64,000 nt of DNA. Origin: Candidatus Rifleibacteriota bacterium (GTDB lineage Bacteria; Muiribacteriota; Ozemobacteria; Ozemobacterales; Ozemobacteraceae). The stretch spans positions 11,000 to 74,999 of the forward strand of contig JADFYG010000018.1 of NCBI GenBank assembly GCA_015233155.1, written 5' to 3'. The position numbers and the translations under genes are program-made. Positions 1 through 14,500 of this stretch are shown piece by piece. How positions within the stretch are numbered: the stretch's first letter is position 1; every line of letters begins with the position of its first letter. The notes under the pieces are model-generated. The model was not told the origin of the DNA and made no database searches. It was given only the letters and a program-made list of their open reading frames with translations.

Positions 1-420
1 CGCAAGGCGAAAATTCTGCCTCCTCTGTTAGAAATAGATGGCTGTCGCTATTATGTCGGCCGCAATGGCCGTCAGAACGATCTGGTTACCTTTGGGGTTG
101 GAAGACGCGGAGACCTCTGGGCACACGCAAATGATGTTCCTGGCGCACACGTTGTAGCCAGGCGACCCGGGAATACGCCTACTACGGAAGATGAACATCG
201 CGCGGCAGTCCTGGCCGCCTGGTTCAGTTTCGCGCGCGGAAGCGGAAAAGTTCCGGTCGATGTGACCGACATCGCTAATGTGAAACGTATTCCTGGCGGC
301 GGCCCCGGACGCGTTAATTATACGCATCAACATACCGTTTTTGTTGATCCGCGCGAGGCTCTTGAGTGGTTTCCGGACGGTCAGCCGCCCGAACAACAAC
401 GCAGCGACTGTAAAAAATAG
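1..420 (+). CDS. rqcH: C-terminal NFACT-R domain of RqcH/FbpA-family ribosome quality-control protein (5' partial)
   Basis: Frame 1 is open from base 1 to TAG 418-420: RKAKILPP...YYVGRNGRQNDLVTF...DLWAHANDVPGAHVV...AAVLAAWFS...VPVDVT...VKRIPGGGPGRVNY. These are typical NFACT-R motifs. Missing from the ORF track because the start lies outside the window. Confidence 0.85.
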   Translation, partial: RKAKILPPLLEIDGCRYYVGRNGRQNDLVTFGVGRRGDLWAHANDVPGAHVVARRPGNTPTTEDEHRAAVLAAWFSFARGSGKVPVDVTDIANVKRIPGGGPGRVNYTHQHTVFVDPREALEWFPDGQPPEQQRSDCKK

Positions 421-487
421 TTAAGAGTCGCTGCCCATGCAGTCGTGTATTTGACAGGTTCGACGCGCTAATATACCATGACTGCAA

Positions 488-2116
488 ATGAAACGATCAA
501 CGAACACAAAAGATTTAAACATAGGACAGCTCATGAGTGACATCTCTCTTGATGAAGAGAGATTGCTCGCTAATCTGGCTTTCGATCCTGTCAGCGCAGG
601 CAAACAGTTGTTCGACAAGCATTTTTCGGCCAATGATTTCCAGGGCGTGGAAGCCAATCGTATTCTGCTCGGAGCTATGCTCGCTTCGCTTGAAGCAGAA
701 GAAAATCTTAACCTTCCAAATCTGTATAAGCGGCTGACGGAAGAACAGAAGGCAGGCAAGCCAAAGCTTGACTGGATAGGTGGTTCGGAACGACTGCAGA
801 AGCTTTTCACCTCACCGTTCGCAATGTCCGGAGTCACGCAGTTAGAGGATCTGGACCCTTTAATTGACCGCATCCGTGATCGAAATACCCGATCATCCGC
901 GCGTCGTCTCCTGATACAGTATGGAGAAAAAGTGCTCAACACCGACACTGAGGTGTTCGAATCTCTCAGCGGCTGTCTGCAGGATCTGCGCACGTTATTC
1001 CTCCAGGGAAGCACAGGGTATATTCGCAATCTCGGCATCCACCTGGAAGAAATGCGCGATCTGATTTCGGCTAATCGTGAGCGTAAGCGTGACTACATAG
1101 GGTTTGAAACCACGTTTCCGATTCTCCAGGAGCGCCTGAGCGGCATCCAAAAAGAATTTTACCTCTTCACCAGCGGAGTCGGGATGGGCAAATCGACGTT
1201 TTTGACTCAGCTGGCCTGGGATCTCGCCAACATGAATCCCGAACTCACCGTTTTATTTTTCAGTCTTGACCTGAATCGCATCGATATTTCCGCAAAACTG
1301 GTTGCGCAGGCAGGCGAGGTCCCTATCGACTATGTAAAAAATCCGTATGTCACGAATCCAGCCTTTGAACAGCGACGTCAGATAGGCTTGGACAAGGTTT
1401 CCAAAATGAGTGAACGGCTTTTCGTAGTCGATGAATCTTCCGGACGCATTTTTATCGATGACATAAAAAGGCTCATAAGGCGGACAAAACTTGAACGCGG
1501 TGGTGAAGTAGCGGTTGTCATCGATCCTATTTTCAAAATACACATCAAGCAGGATCGCCTTGGATTCAACGAAAAATGTAATTTTTTAGCCGCTGAACTA
1601 AAGAGTATATCAGCAGTGGAGGGCGTTGCGCTTATTGCTTCGGCCGGGCTTCCGAAAGCCATCAGCGACCGTCGGCCAATTCGTGAAGACCTGGAAGAAA
1701 TCATGGGTCTGCTATACGATCCATATGTGGTCTTTTTTCTTTATTGTGATTATCTGAATGATTTTGACACTCCATTCCTGGAATGGCAATGGGGAAAAGA
1801 TAATTTCATGATTCCTATAACTGAGTTGATGATCGCGAAAAACAAAATGGGTATTATCAACACTCGCATTTTCTACAGATATTTTGAATCATATTCCCGT
1901 TTTAAAGAGTGCGCCCCCCAGGAAGTGGAAAACTATACGGCAATGATCGAAAATCTTCAAAAGTTCAAGGATGACAAACATCTCAAGGAACGTTCATCGG
2001 GAAATAGCGGCAGCGGCACTGGCGGGGGAAGTCGTCCCTCTTCCGGGTTTTCCGGTGGCGGTGGCGGCAGCGGCGGTGGCAGGGGTAATAAACAAGGGCG
2101 CGACGAAGAATTCTAA
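488..2116 (+). CDS. Divergent DnaB-like replicative-helicase paralog with Gly-rich acidic C-terminal tail
   Basis: DnaB-like N-terminal domain; Walker A SGVGMGKS (1172-1195), FFSLDL, VVIDPI, DRRP..DL, IAKNKMG align with DnaB motifs H1-H4 but with substitutions; tail ...GGGGGSGGGRGNKQGRDEEF. Confidence 0.75.
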   Translation: MKRSTNTKDLNIGQLMSDISLDEERLLANLAFDPVSAGKQLFDKHFSANDFQGVEANRILLGAMLASLEAEENLNLPNLYKRLTEEQKAGKPKLDWIGGSERLQKLFTSPFAMSGVTQLEDLDPLIDRIRDRNTRSSARRLLIQYGEKVLNTDTEVFESLSGCLQDLRTLFLQGSTGYIRNLGIHLEEMRDLISANRERKRDYIGFETTFPILQERLSGIQKEFYLFTSGVGMGKSTFLTQLAWDLANMNPELTVLFFSLDLNRIDISAKLVAQAGEVPIDYVKNPYVTNPAFEQRRQIGLDKVSKMSERLFVVDESSGRIFIDDIKRLIRRTKLERGGEVAVVIDPIFKIHIKQDRLGFNEKCNFLAAELKSISAVEGVALIASAGLPKAISDRRPIREDLEEIMGLLYDPYVVFFLYCDYLNDFDTPFLEWQWGKDNFMIPITELMIAKNKMGIINTRIFYRYFESYSRFKECAPQEVENYTAMIENLQKFKDDKHLKERSSGNSGSGTGGGSRPSSGFSGGGGGSGGGRGNKQGRDEEF

Positions 2117-2162: not shown

Positions 2163-4046
2163 ATGGAAACTGCGGTTGATTGTTTCCAACAGGGAGTCGA
2201 GTACCAGGAACGCGGTCTCTTCGATCTCGCAATAGAGGAATACATCAGGGCCCTGGAGGCCGACCCCGAAAATATAGATGTACTTGTAAATCTCGGTGCG
2301 GCATATCTGCAAAAGGGTCTGGCGGAACGTTCCACGCATGTCCTGAACAAGGCGCTTGCAGCGCAGCCCAACCACCCCCTGGCCTTATACAATCTCGGAA
2401 AAGCTTATCTTTACCGGGATGAGTCGGCTAAAGCACTCGACATTTTCCAGCGCGCGGCGGCAGTGATGCCAGACGACCCTGAGGTAAAAAAGTCGATTGC
2501 ACAATCATTATTGCATCTTGGCCGAAAAGACGAGGCCTGTGGATATTTCCGGGCGCTTCTCCTGGAGCTCTCCAGTGATGTACAAATGCATCTTTTGTAT
2601 GGGAAAACCCTGAGCGAGCTCGAGCGTCACACTGAAGCTCTCGATGTCTATCGCAAATCCGTCAATCTTGCTCCCGACTCCGGAGAAGCGCTCGAAGGAA
2701 TGCTCAGATCACAGCTGGCACTGGATCTCAAGGATAAAGCTCTTACCACCCTGAAACGCGCCATGATGGTCGATCCGAAGAATCCGGTTTTTCACACCAC
2801 CCTGGTCGATCTGCTCATCGATGAAGGAAAAGTCGATGAGGCCATTGCTCATCTGAAAAAAGCCCTATCCAGCGATCCCGCGCAGCCTGTACTTCGCAAA
2901 AAAATGGAAGAATTGACACGGCGGTTACCGGTTTTAAAAAAACGTGCAGGCATCGACCTGGTCGAAAAAAGCAGTCCGTTCGAAATGGAAGTGTATGACC
3001 TTCTCGATGGTTTATATGACGGCAGAATAACCCTGGAAGCAGCAATTCACTCCATGAAATCGCTGCATGCAAAAGATCCGGCCGATCTGTTCATAGCGGA
3101 TGAACTTGCCAATTTATTCTTTCAGGCACGCCTGTATGAAGATGCCATCGAACTGTACAACCAGATTAATAAGAGTGCTCCCGAAGTTCCGAGACATAGA
3201 ATCAACCTTGCGAAGTCTCTTGCTATGGGCGGAAATCTTCAACTGGCCCGCGAATTTCTCGAAGAATCCATTCGCGATATTCCGCAGGACGTCGAGTTGC
3301 CGCTGGCACTCGTCGAACTCTCAATCATCGAACGCACTTATCAGAAGGCGTGGCCGCTTCTGGAAAAAACTCTCAACTCTTATCCGGACAATTCGCACGG
3401 CCTGTTTTTATACGGTTTCATATCGCTGCGTCTGGGCGCACTCGATCGCGCACGCGAGAGTTTCCAGAAGGTAATGAAACTGGCTCCTGATGACGAGGAA
3501 GTCGCCGTCTGGTATTCACGATTGATGATTCTTCTGGGAACGCCGCAACTTGCTATCGAATCCTGGAAATCTTTTCAGGATGGCATCGAAAGTCTTCAGG
3601 AAGTACTAACGCGTGTAGAACTTGCGCTGGCCGCTGGAGACGTTTCGAGTGCGCGGGATATGATAAGCAAGGTTGGCGAGTATGAGCCACACTTCCTCGA
3701 AGACGAGGTTTTGTTCGGAAAAGCCTATTTCTACGCGGGAGACTTTACGAGCGCCGGAGAGCACCTCAATCGCGTTATAGCAAAAGATCCCAATCATTCC
3801 GAGGCACTTGCTCTGCTTGCCATGACACAGCTCGTTAAGAATAAGTCGGCTCGCTTCTGGATGCTATGGCAGAAAGCAATCGAAAGCGATTCGCTGTTTC
3901 CGGTACTTACCGGGCTCATTTTACGCCACGTGCTGAATTTCACACAGATTGAGCGACTCAGGAGCGAAACGCGAAAGCTGGTGGATCTTTCCATAAAGGA
4001 TGACATTGACCGGGCACGTTTGATCGCTTTCCTCAAAATGCTTTGA
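2163..4046 (+). CDS. Tetratricopeptide-repeat protein
   Basis: Repeated TPR consensus units (A..EY.RALE.DP.N.D...NLG.AY; ALYNLGKAY; GFISLRLG..D.A...F.KV..LAP.D). Confidence 0.9.
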   Translation: METAVDCFQQGVEYQERGLFDLAIEEYIRALEADPENIDVLVNLGAAYLQKGLAERSTHVLNKALAAQPNHPLALYNLGKAYLYRDESAKALDIFQRAAAVMPDDPEVKKSIAQSLLHLGRKDEACGYFRALLLELSSDVQMHLLYGKTLSELERHTEALDVYRKSVNLAPDSGEALEGMLRSQLALDLKDKALTTLKRAMMVDPKNPVFHTTLVDLLIDEGKVDEAIAHLKKALSSDPAQPVLRKKMEELTRRLPVLKKRAGIDLVEKSSPFEMEVYDLLDGLYDGRITLEAAIHSMKSLHAKDPADLFIADELANLFFQARLYEDAIELYNQINKSAPEVPRHRINLAKSLAMGGNLQLAREFLEESIRDIPQDVELPLALVELSIIERTYQKAWPLLEKTLNSYPDNSHGLFLYGFISLRLGALDRARESFQKVMKLAPDDEEVAVWYSRLMILLGTPQLAIESWKSFQDGIESLQEVLTRVELALAAGDVSSARDMISKVGEYEPHFLEDEVLFGKAYFYAGDFTSAGEHLNRVIAKDPNHSEALALLAMTQLVKNKSARFWMLWQKAIESDSLFPVLTGLILRHVLNFTQIERLRSETRKLVDLSIKDDIDRARLIAFLKML

Positions 4047-5509
4047 CAAGGATGACCATGCCACATTCTGCACATTCCAATCACCCGCATAGCCATAAAC
4101 CAGCGTTGATCGATAATCGCGATTTACGTGGTCTTCGCCGCCAGGTTTCTCGACTCAGGCGTTTTGCCAATTCCAAAAAGCTTGACGATCGTATCTGCGA
4201 TATCATCGATCTCAAAGGCTATTCTTTGGCGGTTTTACTGAACCGTCTTCCGAAACTGCCTGTATCAGTGCAGAAACGTGTCGCTAATCGTATAGAAGAT
4301 TTCCTGTTTTTCCATCCGGATCGCGGTCGGAAAATATTGGCAAGACTCGTCACCGCTATCAGGAAGGGCGATCCGATCTGTCGCCCTCATCTTCTTGCAG
4401 CGATTGCTGATGTTGCGGCACGTTCCGGAGAACGTATCGCTATTCCCGGCGATATTAACACGGAAGCCCTTGAACTTCTCGAAAACGGCACGGATTTTGT
4501 CCGGCGTGGCAAGGCAGTGGAGTTACTGTCGTTCGGGGAATGCAGCAAATCGATTCCGACCATGCTGAGAGTATTGCAGGACGCGTTGACAAGCATCGAC
4601 GCGGTTCCGAACTATCTGTTCACGGAAACGGTTCTTTTTGCCCTCAAACGACTTGGAGGCGAGGGACTGCTGCGTCTGCTCATTAATCCTCAATCCCGCG
4701 GAGGTCTGGAGAGATTTCGCCTGGATTGGCGCGATCGTCCTGAAGATGAGGCACAAGCTATTCTTCATGCAGTGCAATCGCTCGAAACCGAGTTTGGACA
4801 TCTTATCCTCAAGGTCGTCGAACTGTCCGACTTTGTTCTTCCATTTGTTTCCATGATCCATGAAGGTCTGAACCACACGGAAAAATGGATTCGTCAGACT
4901 TCAGTAGAAGCCATGAGCAAAGCCGGGAAACAAACCGACGATGAAGCCATGCTCAGAATGCTCGGCGATGCAGCCCCGGAAGTCAGGCTAATGGCGGTCC
5001 ATGCCCTTGGAAACATGCCAGCCTCACAAACAGGCGAAAAACTTTGCACCATAGCAGTTTGCGAAAGCGAAACCTACGAAATCAGAATGAACGCGTTATA
5101 CGCGTTGTTCGCGCAAAAAAATCGCACTGCGCTCGAAGCTCTCATAGCTGCGCCAGCCCTCACGATTTCAATAAATGCCCGTGGTCTGGCCGCTCTATTG
5201 TATTCTCGCGAAGAAGGTCTCAAGTGGCTTCTGCAAGGGCTGCACGAAATTCCGGCGACGCATATGCCCGAAGTGTTCCATTACATTCTTGAGATGGCTC
5301 GTCAGGAAGACCTTTCCGCACTTATAGTTGTTCACGAAAACTTGAAGGAAGTTTCCCAGCGGGAGGCTTTTGTTGCATTGCTCAGCCGTTTTCTGCAAAC
5401 TCGCGCCGGTCCGTCTCTTGACGCCGCGATGGAGGCTCTTGCTCCACGCGAGCGAGCGGCTCTTGCCGTCCTTCGTGACGGTTTCGGCAAGATCGATTTT
5501 GTTCATTAA
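4043..5509 (+). CDS. HEAT-repeat protein
   Basis: HEAT-like units (WIRQTSVEAMSKAG; D..PEVRLMAVHALG; EIRMNALYAL); 4-nt overlap with the TPR gene. Confidence 0.75.
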   Translation: MTRMTMPHSAHSNHPHSHKPALIDNRDLRGLRRQVSRLRRFANSKKLDDRICDIIDLKGYSLAVLLNRLPKLPVSVQKRVANRIEDFLFFHPDRGRKILARLVTAIRKGDPICRPHLLAAIADVAARSGERIAIPGDINTEALELLENGTDFVRRGKAVELLSFGECSKSIPTMLRVLQDALTSIDAVPNYLFTETVLFALKRLGGEGLLRLLINPQSRGGLERFRLDWRDRPEDEAQAILHAVQSLETEFGHLILKVVELSDFVLPFVSMIHEGLNHTEKWIRQTSVEAMSKAGKQTDDEAMLRMLGDAAPEVRLMAVHALGNMPASQTGEKLCTIAVCESETYEIRMNALYALFAQKNRTALEALIAAPALTISINARGLAALLYSREEGLKWLLQGLHEIPATHMPEVFHYILEMARQEDLSALIVVHENLKEVSQREAFVALLSRFLQTRAGPSLDAAMEALAPRERAALAVLRDGFGKIDFVH

Positions 5510-5724: not shown

Positions 5725-7404
5725 ATGTTTAAACAACGAAATCGGTTTATGCTAAGCGTAGAGGCACGGCGCGACGTGCCCGTAGCGACAAAATTCAATG
5801 TGCTTAGATATAATAATGCAACAATAGCATTGTTGTTCATACTAACCCTTGGGCTTTTCGGTTGTGGCGGCGGAGGAGGTGGTGGCGGCGGAACTCCTGT
5901 TGGCCCGGATACCTCTCCACCAGCAACTATGCCGGAGCTTGCCGCGCCGACAAACGGGTACCAGTCAGCAGGGATTCCTGTATCCGGAACCGCTCTCACC
6001 GTCAAGAAATTTTTAAGCAATCAGAGCGACGAACTGGTCTTTTTCAATCGAACCGGCGCCCGTATGACAATTAATGTCGCGGCTCAATTGTCCGGAGCTC
6101 TGGCCGCTTCGCGCGTAGTATCCGGCAATACCGTCGCGAAACCCGATTCCTCTGTTGTTATTCCGCCGATTGACATCAGTCATTCGACCCGTCTCCATCA
6201 GGTCCTGCGTGATAATGAAAAACTCATGCCGCCATTTTCCCCGAACGCATCACGACGGGGATCAGTAATTGCCGCTCGCAAAGCCGACAATGTCGGCGAT
6301 ACGGTAAACTTTCGGGTATTGATGGGCACTGACCTTACGCAGCTCGGCACAGTTAATGCCACCTGTCGCAGCGTTACCTCTCTCAGTGGTTCGGGCGACG
6401 CCAATCTCAATATCTATCTGGATACGTCACTCGTATACGACACAACCGCGAAAAATTTCATCAGCCAGCTTGCCCAGGCCTGGCCCACTATTTACAACAA
6501 GGTCCGCGCCACATTCGGGGAAGAGCCGCCTGCGGATTTCAACAGTCTGGGCAAAGATATCAGCGTAGTCTTGTCTCCGGCATTGGAAATTGCCGGCTTC
6601 TTCAATTCCGGCGATCTTTTCCCACCGGATCAGATTGAAGGGGGAAAGAGCAATCAGCGCAAGATCTTTTACATGCAATATGCTCCCGCTAATTCGCAGA
6701 TCAGATTGACGGTCGCAGACACGGAAAGCACGATGGCTCACGAGTTTCAACACATGATCAATTTCTACCAGCGTAACAGCCGCGGTCTGAAGGAGGATGA
6801 CTGGCTGAACGAGGCTATGTCCGGGTATTCTGAGCATATTTGCGGCTTCACGATGACGACGAACAATATTTCCAAGGCATTGCAGGTGCAGAAGTTCTTC
6901 AATCGCACTCCCGATGTTGATCTGACTTTGTCCCCATGGCCTGGAACACTGGACCATGAACATTATGGCCAGGTATATCTTTTTGGAGTCTGGCTCGGGG
7001 AAAAATATGGCATCGACGGCTCCCTGCGCAATCTCGTCTCCGGAAACTTCGTTGGGAAGAGTGGGATCGCGGCAATATCGAACAAGCTCTTCGATGCCGT
7101 GGTCGCTGAATGGATGATCGCTCTCGTGGTCAATGACCAGACCAAAGGTGCAAAATACGGATACGAAGATATCGATTTATATACCACATACACGTATGAT
7201 GCCAGTGTCACAGGCAATGGCAAGTCTCAACAAATACAGTTTTCCGGCCCTTCCAGATTTACAAACAATGCTGTGTTGCCATTCAGTGGCGCCATTTCGA
7301 TTGATTCATGGTCTGGTGCTTACTTAAAGATCGGCGGAGGCAATGGTTCCGATCTTGTACTGAGCTTGCCTTCACAGGTTTCCGTGTTCGAAATGCATAA
7401 ATAA
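5725..7404 (+). CDS. Lipoprotein with zincin (M30/hyicolysin-like) metallopeptidase domain
   Basis: RBS GGAGG 5711-5715; lipobox LFG-C followed by poly-Gly; TMAHEFQHMIN (6739-6753) and downstream WLNEAMS. Confidence 0.8.
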   Translation: MFKQRNRFMLSVEARRDVPVATKFNVLRYNNATIALLFILTLGLFGCGGGGGGGGGTPVGPDTSPPATMPELAAPTNGYQSAGIPVSGTALTVKKFLSNQSDELVFFNRTGARMTINVAAQLSGALAASRVVSGNTVAKPDSSVVIPPIDISHSTRLHQVLRDNEKLMPPFSPNASRRGSVIAARKADNVGDTVNFRVLMGTDLTQLGTVNATCRSVTSLSGSGDANLNIYLDTSLVYDTTAKNFISQLAQAWPTIYNKVRATFGEEPPADFNSLGKDISVVLSPALEIAGFFNSGDLFPPDQIEGGKSNQRKIFYMQYAPANSQIRLTVADTESTMAHEFQHMINFYQRNSRGLKEDDWLNEAMSGYSEHICGFTMTTNNISKALQVQKFFNRTPDVDLTLSPWPGTLDHEHYGQVYLFGVWLGEKYGIDGSLRNLVSGNFVGKSGIAAISNKLFDAVVAEWMIALVVNDQTKGAKYGYEDIDLYTTYTYDASVTGNGKSQQIQFSGPSRFTNNAVLPFSGAISIDSWSGAYLKIGGGNGSDLVLSLPSQVSVFEMHK

Positions 7405-7420: not shown

Positions 7421-10400
7421 GTGATAATTATGACGACCGTCTTCAACACGAGATTCAGCCCTCTGGTTGCCTTGGCCATTCTCGCGACATTCATTATCTT
7501 TACGGGTTGCGGCGGCGGCGGAGGAGGAGGAAGTGTCGGGAACGGTCCGATTGTAGATGTAGGCACCGTCTCCGGTGTCGTCATTGATCCTACGCTACTC
7601 GCTTCGCCTCATGGCGATATTCGTTCCGTCGGAACGAGATCACTACCAGGTGCAACTGTTTTCATCGAGGAAATGCCTTCCTTGCGCACGGTTACTGACG
7701 CAAACGGAGCATTCCAGATGCTGGAAGTTCCGATCAATCAGGATTTTCATCTGATCGTTCGATATGACTCGACTTCAGGCAGCGGTATATTTCGCACTCG
7801 TTCGGAAAAACTTTCCCTTACTTCTTCCATTCACCTCATCCATATCGATCTTCCGGTCCAGCGTGCCAACAATAGCGTCATACTTACCGTTTCAGATACC
7901 CACGGAAATGTCATTCCTAATGCCCAGGTCCAGGTATGGGGAGAGACTCAGCTGACCGATTCGGCAGGTCGTGTTATTCTTCAAATGCCTGAAGGCACAG
8001 TGGAAGTAATGGTTTCCTCCCCAGCTGTAACGCCGCTTTCCATAGCGGTGGTCTTCGCGACAACCGCGCCGGCGCAAGTTGGTGTTACGCTTTTACCAAC
8101 AGGCAGCAGCAACCGCCCCCCCCAGGTCGTGCTCAGTGTTGCATCCACCCAGATTGCAAAAGGCGAATCCGTAGTTTTGAAAGCCATCGGAACAGACCCG
8201 GACGGTGACCCTATAACTTATGCCTGGAGCGCCGAGGGCGGAAAGCTTGGTAACTTCGGCCCTGCCGATACAAGTGTGACATGGAATGCACCGGATGCAG
8301 ATATGATGGCTACGGTTTCGGTAGTCGTCAGCGACACGCGGGGCGGACAGTGCAGAGCAGCCATTAGTTTCCGCGTCGGAATCGGAGGATCGAATCGCGT
8401 TCCCAACGTTACCGCAACAGCTGATCCGGTGCGGGTAATGACGGGAGGCACAGTAACATTGCGTGCCACGGCCTCCGACCCCGATGGCGACTCAGTCTCA
8501 TTGTTCTGGAGCGCCCCATCCGGACTGTTATCCACTACAACAGGAGCGTTAATAACCTGGACTGCTCCCGGCACGGAGGGTTCATTTATCGTTACTGTCA
8601 AGGCGACTGACAGCAAGGGCGCTTCAACCGTAACAACGGTTCCGATCACTGTTTTCTCTAATCATGCCCCTGTAGTGGCGATTGTTTCCACAAGTACGCA
8701 AAGCATCCAGGGAGGCTCTCTCGCCCTTGTTGCGTCAGCAACTGATCCGGACGGGGATCCGCTTACATTGGTCTGGACGACCTCCGCTGGCAGTCTCTCG
8801 GCAACCTCCGCAAACAATACCACCTGGACCGCACCCATGCAGTATGGTTCATCGACGGTCACGGTAACCGCCAGTGACGGACGCGGTGGTGTTGCATCCA
8901 CCTCTCTCGTTCTGTATGTCCCTAACCCGGTAAACCAGTCTCCGGTGATTCTGGCCTTAACTCCGACTCTTACTTCAACTTTTGAAGGACAAAACGTTTC
9001 AATTACTGCTGCTGCAACTGACCCTGATGGGGACTCGCTTACATACACATGGACCACAACAGGCGGCAGTTGTAATCCTCAGGGAGCTGTAAACACGACT
9101 TGGATTCCTGGTTCCGGTCCCGCCACTTATTCGGTGGATTGTACAGTTACAGACGGACGTGGTGGTTCTGCGAAGGCATCGGTACAAATAAACGTAATAC
9201 CCGTGCTGAACCTGGCGGTCGGCGAACACAGTATCATCGATATTGCTGCGGGAGCCTCAGTATGGATTCCTACCCTGACCGGGGATGAAAGATATGGACT
9301 CGTCTTGTTTCCGCGCACGGAGTTTGCGGGCAGCTACCGGGTGCTTGTAAATGGCGGGGGAAGCCTGCTTCTGGACAAAAATGAGCCAGCTGCCAGCGTC
9401 AGAATGTCACAGTTTGCCGATGCTGCGCCTCGACAGGCGGAGACAGACGCAGTCATGCGGGAGCATGGTCGCAGCTCTATACCTGGAGGAACGGGAGCGG
9501 CTTCCTATCGCTCCGGCAGCAAGGTCTCTCTGAATGAAGTTAACATTGGAGATCAACAGGCATTTTCAGTCTGGAATGGCGGCGGAGGCCGAGTAAATAG
9601 AACCGGTGAACTGCGTTATATCGGTACAACCTGCAAGATTTTCCGGGACACGGCCGGATATAACGGTTACAATCCATCGCTCGTGACCGATGCTCTGATA
9701 GCCTCTTTCGCGATGGAGTTCGATTCACGTGTTTATCCGTTCATCATGACAAACTACAGCGCAAGCGATACCTATGCCCGTGATGGGGATATCAACCATG
9801 ATGGAAAAGTGACGATTTTCTTTACCCCGGTAGTGAATGCAATCGGAGCGGCTGGTTTTTTCGATCCTGATGATTTTAACGCCTGGGGGGCCACAAATCA
9901 GCGCGACATGTTTTACATGTGGACTCGTGATAACCGTTATTCGCTGGCCTGGTGGAACATGGCCACCATTGCCACTCTTGTCCATGAATTTCAGCATCTT
10001 GTAAGTTATGTAGCTCATCGAATCACGTTCGGCGGCAGTTCTGATGAAGAGGCCTGGTTAAACGAGGGTATGAGCGTCTGTTCCGAAATTCGATACATGG
10101 GTAGCCGCGATGAGCGTTTTGACGATTACCAGATTCAACCGGATGCCTTCTCATTGCTTGATTGGCCCTCGAATGCCGGACTCGGTAACTATGGTTGCGT
10201 AGGTCTTTTCGGTCTTTACGTTTTCGAACAACTCGGCACTGATACCATCAAGGCACTGGTGCAGACGAAGGATACGGGAGTTGACAACCTGAATGCCCGC
10301 GCGGCATCTCGCGGAGGGCTCTTCGGATTACTCCCGGATTGGGGAGTCACGTTGTTTCGGTGGGGACGCGGACTTCCGGCATCAGCTATGTTCGACTATA

Positions 10401-10591
10401 ATCTGAACGTCGCTCTTTCTCTGAAAACATCTAATGTGGCATTTGGAAGCAGTTTTTCAGCTTCCATGTCAGATACGGCTTTCAGATTCATAAATCTGAC
10501 GCAGGCAACTACTCCGGCATCTTACACAAATCTTTCGTTCCAGGATCCGGATAACGGCAGCTGCTCGGTAGCAATCATCCGTGTGAAATGA
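7421..10591 (+). CDS. Large lipoprotein: Ig-like (PKD/cadherin-like DPDGD) repeats plus C-terminal M30-like zincin peptidase
   Basis: Lipobox FTG-C plus poly-Gly; four repeats containing A.DPDGD..T..W....G.L; TLVHEFQHLVSY (9983-9997) and WLNEGMS. Confidence 0.8.
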   Translation: MIIMTTVFNTRFSPLVALAILATFIIFTGCGGGGGGGSVGNGPIVDVGTVSGVVIDPTLLASPHGDIRSVGTRSLPGATVFIEEMPSLRTVTDANGAFQMLEVPINQDFHLIVRYDSTSGSGIFRTRSEKLSLTSSIHLIHIDLPVQRANNSVILTVSDTHGNVIPNAQVQVWGETQLTDSAGRVILQMPEGTVEVMVSSPAVTPLSIAVVFATTAPAQVGVTLLPTGSSNRPPQVVLSVASTQIAKGESVVLKAIGTDPDGDPITYAWSAEGGKLGNFGPADTSVTWNAPDADMMATVSVVVSDTRGGQCRAAISFRVGIGGSNRVPNVTATADPVRVMTGGTVTLRATASDPDGDSVSLFWSAPSGLLSTTTGALITWTAPGTEGSFIVTVKATDSKGASTVTTVPITVFSNHAPVVAIVSTSTQSIQGGSLALVASATDPDGDPLTLVWTTSAGSLSATSANNTTWTAPMQYGSSTVTVTASDGRGGVASTSLVLYVPNPVNQSPVILALTPTLTSTFEGQNVSITAAATDPDGDSLTYTWTTTGGSCNPQGAVNTTWIPGSGPATYSVDCTVTDGRGGSAKASVQINVIPVLNLAVGEHSIIDIAAGASVWIPTLTGDERYGLVLFPRTEFAGSYRVLVNGGGSLLLDKNEPAASVRMSQFADAAPRQAETDAVMREHGRSSIPGGTGAASYRSGSKVSLNEVNIGDQQAFSVWNGGGGRVNRTGELRYIGTTCKIFRDTAGYNGYNPSLVTDALIASFAMEFDSRVYPFIMTNYSASDTYARDGDINHDGKVTIFFTPVVNAIGAAGFFDPDDFNAWGATNQRDMFYMWTRDNRYSLAWWNMATIATLVHEFQHLVSYVAHRITFGGSSDEEAWLNEGMSVCSEIRYMGSRDERFDDYQIQPDAFSLLDWPSNAGLGNYGCVGLFGLYVFEQLGTDTIKALVQTKDTGVDNLNARAASRGGLFGLLPDWGVTLFRWGRGLPASAMFDYNLNVALSLKTSNVAFGSSFSASMSDTAFRFINLTQATTPASYTNLSFQDPDNGSCSVAIIRVK

Positions 10592-11532: not shown

Positions 11533-14500
11533 ATGAGACGGACGATTTCAAGAGGCATGTTTCTGGTGGCCCTGTTCCTGTTCCTGTGGAATCTGAGCGG
11601 GTGTAATTTCCTGTCGGGGTCCAAGCCGATGGAGTCCGGGATCGCCGGGAACGCCCCCGAGGGTGTAGGCAGTCTCAAGTTCCAGATGGTTTTACCGCAG
11701 GAGCCGAATCCGCCGCTGGGCGGTGTACGGGCGGCGACCGGGAGCGGGACCTGCACCGTGACCTTCCGAGTCATCCTCGGAAATCCTGGTAACACCAGCA
11801 ATCTGACCCAGACCCTTACCCGCACCGTCCCCGTCAACCCCGACGGCAGCGCCAACACGATCTTTCCCGGTCTTCCCCTCAAGCCCGTAGTTGCCCTTAT
11901 CAATATCGGGGGGGGGGCACTACGGCGGCTTCACTGACTTTCAAGGCGCGACGGAGCTGAACCCGGGCGAGAACACGATGGACATGGTGCCGTCTGGATG
12001 CGGGCTTCCCGCCGACGTCCTGGCCAACACCCTACAGTCGATTTTCCTGTCACCCGGGTTGATGATGAACTCGCATCCGGGCATAGTCAACACATTGCGC
12101 ACGATCATACAACCTTTGTTCGACACGACTGGAAAACTTCTGACGGGTGTCGATCCGACATCAATCAGCAACCAGACTCTCGACAGTTTCGTCCGCCGGA
12201 CGTTGCCGGCGACCATTCCCCACCTCGAGATTGCCTCTGACGGAGTCACGCTGCTCGCCCTGGCAAACCAGACCGAGACCTGGCGTCGCTCGCCCGGCCA
12301 GGTGCTTGCCTACACCGGCAGCGGCCTCACCGACGCCGCCAACTGGAAGATCCAGCGCCTGTTCTGTAACGGCGTCGACGGCTTCGCTTACGTGGGCTAT
12401 ACCGACGCCATGGGCGCCCGCTCGGCGCTGGCTCGCATAGACCTGACGACGGCCTCCACCACAGGCATCTGCCTTAACCAGGGCCCACTCAACCAAGGCA
12501 TCGTGTTGCCCGACACGTCGGTCGTCCTGGGCGGTGTCGAGGGGGTGGGCAAGACCCCGATCCTGGCCCGCTGGAGCGGCGCTGGTGCGGTCGACACGGC
12601 CGTTGGTACCGGCTTCTTCTGGTCACCCCGCAAGTTCTCCGAAATCTCGCTAACCAACACCGCGATCGGCGTTTCCGGCATCCAGTTCGACGGCAACGAT
12701 ACGCTGATCGTCGCATTCCCCGGCACCGTAGCCGGCATGGTTCGCACCTACCGCATCGCGATCGCGACCGGGCTGGGCGGTCCCCAGTTCACCGGCGCCA
12801 TCGTGAACTCCCCCCCACTCATCACGATCGTGCAGCCCGCCCCCGGCGCAATTTTCCCTGTCGGTATGCAGATCCCAATCGAGGCCCAAGCCCGCGATCT
12901 CGACGGCACCATTGCGAACATGCAGATTCTGAAGGACGGCCAGTTGGTCGCCTCCTCGACCACCGCCGCCTGCACGTATTCGTTCACGCCCACGACGGCA
13001 GGCTCCTACACTTTCCAGGTCTCCGCCTGGGACAATCTTGGGGCCTCCACCACTTGGCAACTTCCGGTCATAGTCGCTCCAGCCTCGACCACGGTTCGTT
13101 CTCTGCTCGGAATTTCTCTGGCCACCCACACGATACTCCTTACATCGGCCACCGGAACATTCGATCTGGCGACAATCGGAGTCAACGCCTCGTATTCAGA
13201 TCTGACCATTGCCTCTGTAACCCGGGTCGAATGGAGTCTAGCCAGCGGGAGCGGCTCTCTCGTTGGAACCATCTTCCAGGCTTCCGGCACCGGCGCCCTC
13301 CTCGCCTGCACCTACTCAGAAGGCGGCCTCCGCCGGGTCGACACCTTGGGCATCACCATTCCGGGCCTGCCAGCTCCCCGAACTTTGGTGGGAATCTCGC
13401 TGGCCACCAACACCGTCATCCTTCTGTCGGCCACAGGAACGTTTGATCTTGCTACGATTGGGGTTGTCGCCTCTTACTCCAACCAGACCATCGCCTCGGT
13501 TACCAACGTGAACTGGAACTTGGCCAGTGGTTCGGGCGCCATCGTTGGCACCGTGTTTCAGGCATCCGGCACCGCAGCCATCCTCACGTGCTCCTATTCC
13601 GAGAGCAGCATCACCCGGATCGCAACCCTGAGCGTCGCCGTCCCCAGCCTTCCCAATTCAGGGGCAATGCGCACCATCGCCGCCGGCGGCAACTGGAACG
13701 CCTCCGCCACCTGGGTCTATGGCCGGAGTCCCCCGCCAGTGACTCCGTCGAGATCAACGGCACGGTCACCATCTCCCAGAATGCTAGCTGCGCAACCGCC
13801 ACCATCAACCCCGTTGCCACTCTGCGTGGCAACGCCACTCTGGCGGTCACCGGAAGTTTGGTAAACAACGGGAACATTAGTGATGGGGTCGGTGATTGGT
13901 TTTATGTGTATGTCAAAGGAGATCTCACGAACAGCGGTTCCATTTCTAATCGTTCATTTATTACCGATGGGGCCATCACGAACAACGGTACTATGTCCAA
14001 TTATTATTTGTCCCTCTGTAAAAATCTAACATGGAACAGCGGCAGTTTCGCGCCATCAAATCTCTATTTCAATGGAGCAGCCGAGCAGGTCGTAACCTTG
14101 GCGTCCGGTTTGCCAAACGTTTCATGCACTGGAAGTAACAAGAATTTGCGCATGGAGAGCGATCTCATTTTCTCTCAACTCTCCCTCGGTGGAGATGCTC
14201 TATTGAACATGAATTCCCACAAATTGGCTGGCGTAAATGGTGGTATCATTTCCGGGATTGCCACTTTTTCGAACGTGAACACTGTGGAAGGACTCATCAC
14301 ACTCAGCGGTGGGTCGCCAACTGTTATCGGTGATTTGACGGTGGCCTCTGCGGCCACTCTGCGTGGCCGCGCCAATCTGGCGGTTACCGGAAGTTTGGTA
14401 AACAACGGGAACATTAGTGATGGGGTCGGTGATTGGTTTTATGTGTATGTCAAAGGGGATCTCACGAACAACGGTTCCATTTCTAATCGCTCATTTATTA

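Follow-up and report, generated by a model that had tools for sequence, protein, structure and literature searches.

A full-length DnaB paralogue of the Riflebacteria with a conserved nucleotide pocket and altered DNA-coupling motifs

The window analysed here comprises 64,000 nucleotides of a Candidatus Rifleibacteriota bacterium of the family Ozemobacteraceae (assembly GCA_015233155.1, contig JADFYG010000018.1, positions 11,000 to 74,999). Near its 5′ end, the open reading frame (ORF) 488 to 2116 on the forward strand encodes a DnaB-family paralogue, which is named P3 in the following. P3 has a full-length DnaB fold, consisting of a collar domain, a linker helix and a RecA-like C-terminal domain, and it is a lineage-specific, single-copy core gene of the Riflebacteria. 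The reading favoured here, tentatively and at a little less than even confidence, is that P3 is a non-unwinding, nucleotide-gated ring scaffold, which works together with a tetratricopeptide repeat (TPR) partner in DNA replication or repair.

Domain Architecture and Translation Start

A full-length DnaB architecture had been assigned to the ORF in a first-pass annotation, and this was borne out by profile, structure and domain comparisons. The Pfam model DnaB_C (PF03796) matched P3 with 67.9 bits against a gathering cut-off of 27 and was covered from position 1 to 254 of 255. The model TIGR00665 for canonical DnaB aligned end to end (residues 23-475 to model positions 9-433 of 435), with a score of 85.8 bits, which is below the curated cut-off of 385.25. 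A phmmer search against the PDB sequences returned DnaB helicases only (best match 2vye, E-value 1.3e-11), and all of the substitutions listed below are visible in the alignment.

The structure of P3 was predicted with AlphaFold2 (AF2) from an alignment of 51 sequences. The mean predicted local distance difference test score (pLDDT) was 85.5, and values below 50 occurred only in the last ~30 residues. Among the PDB chains found with Foldseek, the top 50 matches were all DnaB or DnaB-like (G40P) chains, aligned over 455-490 columns. The first 198 residues were compared with canonical DnaB N-terminal domains by hhalign, resulting in a match with a probability of 95.7% (E-value 8.9e-9, 128 columns). 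By its position in the Foldseek alignments, the predicted helix of residues 182-198 appears to be the equivalent of the DnaB linker and may have the same role.

The promoter-like site directly upstream suggests that translation starts at the ATG at position 533, which is preceded by an AGGA at positions 523-526 and results in a protein of 527 aa. The public gene call for P3 (P0001) has the same length of 527 aa.

Motif States and Their Conservation

For the analysis of the motifs, 71 P3 orthologues from the same family and nine from other families were aligned with 40 canonical DnaBs, including that of this genome. The motifs quoted in the first-pass annotation were all found in place, namely a retained GMGKS in Walker A, FSLDL for FSLEM, SAGLPK for SQLSR, DLEEIMGLLYDPY for DLRESGxIEQDAD, and KNK for KxR. 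Conservation in the orthologues had been proposed there as a check, and the substitutions were found to be fixed in about 80 of them.

The nucleotide-binding residues are strictly constrained. In Walker A, G234, K235 and S/T236 are each present in 80/80 orthologues, and the canonical DnaBs carry the Lys and the Thr/Ser in 40/40 sequences. Canonical DnaB has an A-R-P prefix in front of this motif (PMC8421360), which reads [GS]-G-V in the P3 clade, while the GK[ST] itself is invariant. Walker B had been regarded as altered. This applies to its flanks, which read VIDPIF in place of IDYLQL, but the functional Asp346 is intact in all 80 orthologues, just as Asp is in all 40 canonical DnaBs. In DnaB, the catalytic Glu adjoins the attacking water (PMC8421360); this position is Asp in 80/80 P3 orthologues and Glu in 40/40 canonical DnaBs. 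For DnaB of Bst, K418 was described as the Lys finger and R420 as the Arg finger (PMC8421360). The first of these is kept in P3 as K451 (80/80; canonical Lys 40/40), whereas the second is replaced by K453 (79/80; canonical Arg 40/40). Since the nucleotide pocket is strictly constrained, P3 very likely binds nucleotide, and judging from its residues some hydrolysis of ATP is plausible.

At the sensor and in the H4 loop, residues are replaced. The sensor position is Gly in 71/71 sequences within the family and N, E, G or H in other families, compared to Gln in 39/40 canonical DnaBs. Bst DnaB contacts DNA at three points only, which are the side chain of R381 and the amides of E382 and G384 (PMC8421360). 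In the H4 loop of P3, this Arg is changed to Glu (Glu403 in 66/71 family orthologues; canonical Arg 39/40), the Ser to Ile, and the Gly, which is present in 40/40 canonical sequences, to Met. Altogether, the sensor and H4 residues differ among the families of the P3 clade, whereas they are near-invariant in canonical DnaB and in the phage-type relatives described below.

Distribution and Further DnaB-Family Genes

Among 41 genomes of the phylum, 40 have an orthologue of P3. All 24 genomes of the same family have one with an intact reading frame and 55-84% identity, or 55-71% by another count, and 15 of 16 genomes of other families have one with 28-45% identity. An exhaustive HMMER search of 1.84 billion representative proteins with P3 resulted in only 22 clusters below an E-value of 1e-30. 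Furthermore, the clade-specific insertion motif (Table 1) was used as a search pattern in a scan of one genome per prokaryotic species. It revealed 65 loci, nearly all labelled as Riflebacteria, Rifleibacteriota, Ozemobacteraceae, Wallbacteria or unclassified, and a handful of metagenome-assembled genomes carrying other labels (Cloacimonadota, Avigastranaerophilus, Methylomirabilis, Erysipelotrichia).

P3 is not the only dnaB-like gene of its genome, which is represented by an assembly of 6.3 Mb in 185 contigs with a completeness of 84%. The search for a canonical dnaB, which had been proposed along with the idea that P3 exists beside a true DnaB, identified a gene at C55:3398-4702 with 580.2 bits to TIGR00665 and all canonical motifs, located 2 kb from ssb. 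The identity between P3 and the host DnaB amounts to only ~21-25%. Of the 41 genomes, 39 encode a DnaB that exceeds the curated cut-off, and the two exceptions are only 64-67% complete. Most of the 41 genomes contain exactly three DnaB-family genes, comprising the canonical one, a second paralogue of 550-870 aa scoring ~150-175 bits and P3 with ~45-120 bits to TIGR00665. A linkage of P3 to dnaB was never seen. DciA, the ancestral loader, was found in 23 of 25 relatives, but not in this 84%-complete assembly.

In this genome, the second non-canonical paralogue is encoded at C97:37257-38606 (locus L054; 812 aa, with a range of 553-866 aa among relatives). Besides a zinc-ribbon-like CxxC...CxxC at the N-terminus, it contains a long disordered region. 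It retains the catalytic Glu (FFTYEQ), IDYIQ and K-N-R, and is present in nearly every genome of the phylum with 150-175 bits to TIGR00665. Additionally, two paralogous DnaB_C proteins of ~550 aa with an unrelated N-terminal domain are encoded at C132:27752-28609 (-) and C116:58622-59506 (-). Neither of them has a Walker A GK[ST], a catalytic Glu or an Arg finger (IIMGFENMEW..., YFALDNG, AKNLHG). In the tree, both branch among the canonical DnaBs; one of the frames contains a TAG. By their motifs, these proteins look more clearly like pseudo-helicases than P3. A further C-terminal DnaB_C helicase domain belongs to an 898-aa ORF with a long N-terminal region on a 7.6-kb contig (C37:683-1633 (-)), which is possibly a plasmid or phage replicon.

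Relationship to Phage-Type Helicases

The best non-orthologous matches of P3 are phage-type DnaB_C proteins with 60-120 bits. In the direct comparison with canonical DnaBs, which reach ~40-60 bits, the phage-type proteins score 60-108 bits. These relatives are either DnaB_C-only proteins of ~330 aa or fusions of a DnaG-type primase to DnaB_C of 650-830 aa. Among them are the annotated replicative helicases of the Bacillus jumbo phages 0305phi8-36 (ORF182) and vB_BceM_WH1 and of the Moorella phage MTATph1. The best viral structural match of P3 is A7KUV6 with a template modelling (TM) score of 0.80.

The motif states of the phage-type relatives were counted in 107 representative clusters. The catalytic position is Asp in 105 of these and followed by a second Asp, which is absent from P3, in 104; the finger is Lys in 103, and the sensor is Glu or His in 101. 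H4 carries a basic residue in 86 clusters and a Ser/Thr in 80, both of which P3 lacks. Of the resulting signature, FS[LI]DD, an E/H sensor, D[IL][KR]E[ST] and K-N-K, P3 thus shares only the first Asp and K-N-K. Presumably, the phage-type proteins work as helicases, as suggested by the fusions to primases and by the part they play in phage genomes. Because Asp and Lys are the norm in this clade, the replacements of Glu by Asp and of Arg by Lys are by themselves no evidence of inactivity. The first-pass annotation had proposed a nucleotide-binding protein with weak or absent ATPase activity; the pocket is indeed kept, but to call P3 catalytically dead would be too strong.

A maximum likelihood (ML) tree was computed for the helicase domains. 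In it, the clade of the Riflebacteria (SH-aLRT 97) joins the phage-type clade (99), and the canonical DnaBs stand apart (99). However, a tree with the P3 clade on the canonical side was not rejected by the approximately unbiased (AU) test (delta lnL 3.7, p = 0.43), and therefore P3 is not placed firmly beside the phage-type helicases. The low identity to the host DnaB, the best scores to phage-type proteins and the tree grouping together argue that P3 did not arise recently by degeneration of the host dnaB.

Clade-Specific Insertion and C-Terminal Tail

Several parts of P3 are specific to its clade. In the insertion xxTPFLEWxWG, E432 does not vary within the clade, and W433 and W435 reach a conservation of at least 90%. 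E474, C475 and E479 of the C-terminal extension are also invariant in the clade.

The protein ends with a disordered tether and a short conserved tip. For the family, 95 distinct tails were compared. The tether has a length of 20-58 residues past the conserved motif; the tip has an Arg at -5 in 93/95 tails, EEF or DEF in 91/95 and a terminal Phe in 94/95. In this genome, only 4 of 5,090 ORFs of at least 150 aa end with [DE][DE]F. The tips in other families are related, combining acidic and hydrophobic residues (REYEGIF, KKFEIE, RFEVID(ET), NEDIV, NEEEII). A second client of the same receptor was considered, but the sole other ORF ending with REEF (C185:27329-27880) encodes a signal peptide, and since its product seems to be secreted, the match is regarded as due to chance.

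Gene Neighbourhood

P3 is followed by the gene of a cytoplasmic TPR protein and by that of a HEAT-repeat protein (Table 1). The TPR gene (627-637 aa) is located directly 3′ of P3 in 48/48 family loci with downstream sequence. Most of the intergenic distances lie between -3 and +6 nt; in this window, the distance is 46 nt. A TPR gene is likewise located directly 3′ of the DnaB-like gene in 12 loci of other families. The AF2 model of the TPR protein (pLDDT 90.1) is an all-helical, continuous superhelix of ~18 helical pairs. Its Foldseek matches are long TPR scaffolds such as Ctr9, the TPR domain of OGT and Ski3, all of them generic, and the fold search gave no hint at a function. The HEAT gene (440-500 aa) is the next gene after the TPR gene in 46/46 family loci with enough flanking sequence. 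Its orthologues were found in 25/25 genomes of the family, always beside the TPR gene, and in 0/16 genomes of other families. No convincing terminator was found between the genes of P3, the TPR protein and the HEAT protein, which together with the promoter-like site fits a three-gene operon.

A short form of 347-354 aa, which consists of the linker and the helicase domain and lacks the collar, was found in at least four other lineages. The gene order is ligA, short form, TPR gene (633-695 aa), often with overlapping stop and start codons. In 13 loci of other families, ligA is located directly 5′ of the short form, and the NAD-dependent ligase and the TPR protein were confirmed by Pfam. Long open frames at the high-GC loci L049 and L126 had the appearance of LigA/DnaB-like fusions; they are artefacts, as the genes lie in different frames. 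In the loci L130-L134, L050 and L051 of other Riflebacteria families, two ABC-transporter-like genes (570-590 aa) follow 3′ of ligA, short form and TPR gene in conserved order.

The NCBIfam models gave no match above the cut-offs for the TPR, HEAT and lipoprotein genes. PADLOC revealed no match for P3 and only weak generic repeat matches for the TPR and HEAT proteins; the reading of P3 as part of an anti-phage defence system was dropped, being without a PADLOC match.

Further genes surround the operon. The upstream gene (window positions 1-420, continuing into C95) encodes an NFACT/RqcH-type protein of 594 aa (NFACT_N 140.8 bits). It is found near P3 in several genomes of the family, often with inserted genes between them, which looks like family-level synteny only. 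Downstream, the large lipoprotein-like genes 5725-7404 and 7421-10591 encode proteins with a signal peptide, a Cys and seven to nine glycines (CGGGGGGGG). Both have an HExxH-like motif in their C-terminal part; the second contains at least four Big_9/PKD repeats and is syntenic with the P3 operon in several relatives. The region 12001-14000 of the window, which overlaps a lipoprotein gene, has a GC content of 0.61, compared to ~0.48-0.52 elsewhere, and a strong negative GC skew.

Table 1. Position of P3, its motifs and domains, and the adjacent genes in the window.
Feature	Position	Strand	Description
Promoter-like site TTGACA-17-TACCAT	451..479	+	10/12 consensus match only; directly 5′ of P3
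P3, DnaB-family paralogue	488..2116	+	longest ORF 542 aa; stop TAA 2114-2116
DnaB-type N-terminal helical domain	554..979	+	residues 23-164; hhalign; pLDDT > 90
Predicted linker helix	1031..1081	+	residues 182-198; between N-terminal and RecA-like domain; AF2 secondary structure
RecA-like DnaB_C domain	1100..1906	+	residues 205-473; Pfam PF03796
Walker A SGVGMGKST	1172..1198	+	Gly234, Lys235 and Ser236 retained
H1a FSLDL	1259..1273	+	Asp261 in place of the catalytic Glu
Walker B VIDPIF	1517..1534	+	Asp346 retained
H3 region SAGLPK	1640..1657	+	Gly387 in place of the gamma-phosphate sensor Gln
H4 loop DLEEIMGLLYDPY	1688..1726	+	R-E-S-G DNA-phosphate contacts changed to E-E-I-M
Clade-specific insertion NDFDTPFLEWQWGKD	1757..1801	+	residues 424-438; no counterpart in canonical DnaB
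K-N-K	1838..1846	+	Lys finger K451 retained; Lys453 in place of the Arg finger
Clade-specific C-terminal extension ECAPQEVENYxAMIENLxKFK	1907..2002	+	predicted helix, residues 477-505; not in canonical DnaB
Gly/Ser-rich tether	2003..2098	+	disordered; pLDDT < 50
C-terminal tip R-D-E-E-F-COOH	2099..2113	+	conserved short motif; putative docking
TPR superhelix protein	2163..4046	+	627 aa; cytoplasmic; Pfam TPR families; conserved partner gene
HEAT-repeat protein	4043..5509	+	488 aa; Pfam HEAT_2; start TTG overlaps the TPR stop (TTGA)

Proposed Function and Alternative Explanations

The first-pass annotation had also suggested a pseudo-helicase acting as a scaffold. Owing to the loss of the DNA-coupling elements, a non-helicase scaffold is the best reading of P3. 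Like its relatives, P3 would assemble as a ring and bind ATP at the subunit interfaces via the invariant P-loop Lys and Ser, the Walker B Asp, the carboxylate and K-N-K; the turnover of ATP would probably be slow. With the sensor lost and the charge reversed from Arg to Glu at the sole side-chain contact to the DNA phosphate, we propose that hydrolysis would no longer be coupled to translocation on single-stranded DNA. Instead, the nucleotide state of the ring may be read by partners. The main one would be the 627-aa TPR protein, joined by the HEAT protein in this family. By analogy to the binding of EEVD peptides by TPR domains, the TPR protein would most likely be captured via R-x-E-E-F-COO- at the end of the 20-58-residue tether. 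The ancestry of P3 and the linkage to ligA, seen in the sister families in the order ligA, short form, TPR gene, suggest that P3 probably acts in DNA replication or repair.

A more specific version of this scheme, which we regard as rather unlikely, is a replisome-associated platform. Here, the P3 ring would be gated by ATP and, no longer moving on DNA, would present six tethered R-x-E-E-F peptides for the capture of the TPR protein and, where present, the HEAT protein, with an ancestral co-expression with LigA and a function in lagging-strand maturation or repair.

Several observations weigh against P3 as a non-unwinding scaffold. Its Asp and Lys are also found in the presumably working phage helicases, and with these residues P3 could be an active motor. 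The altered H3 and H4 loops are 95-100% conserved within the family, which could mean that they are not inert but bind a new substrate. Finally, ligA of this genome is located at C113 and is not linked to P3, and in the long-form lineages of the Wallbacteria type no TPR gene lies beside the DnaB-like gene.

In an alternative that we consider unlikely and still take seriously, P3 would be an active phage-type helicase or translocase with an Asp base and a Lys finger. It would act together with LigA in a specialised task on DNA, for example repair, restart or lagging-strand processing, the TPR protein being an accessory. It is favoured by the invariance of Walker A, Walker B, the Asp and K-N-K, by the occurrence of the Asp and Lys states in 103-105 of the 107 phage-type clusters, including the primase fusions and the replicative helicases of 0305phi8-36 and MTATph1, by the ligA adjacency in the 13 loci, and by the retained DnaB N-terminal domain. 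On the other hand, P3 lacks residues which the phage-type proteins keep, namely the second Asp, the E/H sensor and the basic residue and Ser/Thr of H4. Moreover, the exchange in H4 is a charge reversal at a DNA-phosphate contact, and the sensor and H4 positions vary between the families of the clade.

Alternatively, P3 might regulate the true DnaB, either through mixed rings or by titration of primase or DciA. The complete DnaB architecture with its collar in this family and the co-existence with a canonical DnaB in 39 of 41 genomes agree with this. Nevertheless, it is improbable, as P3 shares so little identity with the host DnaB, is never linked to dnaB, is accompanied by DciA in 23 of 25 relatives, and keeps the same TPR and ligA neighbours where the short form has no collar. 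For the dominant-negative partner in mixed hexamers, which had been put forward initially, no support was found, and the missing dnaB linkage and the collar-less forms argue against it as a core function. The loader role suggested at the same time is likewise unsupported and unnecessary, and a replacement of the loader by P3 was rejected on account of the presence of DciA in those relatives.

A small probability is also assigned to a mimicry of the C-terminus of the single-stranded DNA-binding protein (SSB), by which the ring would be a hub recruiting SSB-interacting repair proteins. The Gly-rich disordered linker, the acidic tip ending with Phe and, in some lineages, the context of DNA metabolism provided by ligA are in agreement with such a hub. 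However, the three SSBs of this genome end with GVPF, NIPF and AMPF, whereas P3 ends with RDEEF and has no Pro-Phe pair but an invariant Arg, which the SSB tips lack. In addition, its most conserved neighbour is a TPR protein, which is no known SSB client.

A decaying pseudogene or prophage remnant without function, as might be suspected from the very low score to the DnaB equivalog model and the phage-type nearest non-orthologous relatives, is effectively refuted by the intact frame in 24/24 family genomes, the presence in 40/41 genomes of the phylum, dozens of invariant columns, the fixed synteny and the lack of phage genes around P3.

Comparison with Known Systems

With canonical DnaB (superfamily SF4; TIGR00665), P3 shares the three-part architecture, the Walker A Lys, the Walker B Asp and the Lys finger, and chains of DnaB hexamers are its best matches in structure. 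It differs in the change of the catalytic Glu to Asp, of the Arg finger to Lys, of the Gln sensor to Gly and of the H4 sequence R-E-S-G to E-E-I-M, as well as in the additional insertion, C-terminal helix and tail. Instead of being located in an ssb-dnaB neighbourhood, it is flanked by NFACT, TPR and HEAT genes, and a separate true dnaB exists. Judged by its sequence, P3 is a member of the DnaB_C superfamily but lacks the catalytic and DNA-binding features by which the DnaB equivalog is defined, and the name "replicative DNA helicase" given to P3 proteins in the public records is probably wrong.

The phage-type DnaB_C helicases and primase fusions (PHROG 19/243) have the catalytic Asp and the K-N-K finger in common with P3. 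In contrast to P3, they keep the DD pair, the E/H sensor and the basic residue and Ser/Thr in H4, carry a primase or no N-terminal domain in place of the DnaB collar domain, and are genes of mobile elements rather than core chromosomal genes.

In KaiC and the archaeal ArlH-type rings of the RecA superfamily, the nucleotide state controls the binding of partners and not the translocation on nucleic acids, and the C-terminal tails of KaiC bind partners. The likeness of the proposed P3 ring to these proteins is a functional analogy. P3 itself falls outside these families: its DnaB collar is combined with only one RecA domain, and no score was obtained with the Pfam model of KaiC.

A comparable analogy concerns the tail. 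The C-terminal EEVD peptides of Hsp70 and Hsp90 are clamped by TPR domains. Like these peptides and the SSB tips, the P3 tail combines a flexible tether with a short acidic/hydrophobic peptide and a free carboxylate, and the P3 gene adjoins a TPR gene. A Hop-type clamp signature could not be recognised by eye in the sequence of the TPR protein.

A literature search found no paper on DnaB paralogues of the Riflebacteria or on DnaB pseudohelicases. The nearest published parallel is the PriA pseudohelicase of Deinococcus radiodurans, a bacterial replication helicase that was retained as a non-unwinding protein (PMC4504706). It differs from P3 in belonging to superfamily SF2 and in being the sole, degenerate copy, whereas P3 is an additional paralogue.

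Significance for the Riflebacteria

DnaB is usually encoded by one essential gene under strong constraint, yet here the genomes of an entire candidate phylum each retain three DnaB-family proteins. In P3, the elements for the coupling to DNA were lost while the nucleotide pocket was conserved, and a putative docking tail and a dedicated TPR partner were gained. If the proposed function is true, P3 would be a natural conversion of a hexameric helicase into a nucleotide-gated scaffold, and together with its partners it would extend bacterial DNA replication or repair by a new accessory module and provide an example of tail-to-TPR docking from bacteria. Should the more specific version apply, the P3 ring would form a replisome-platform module without a described bacterial counterpart.

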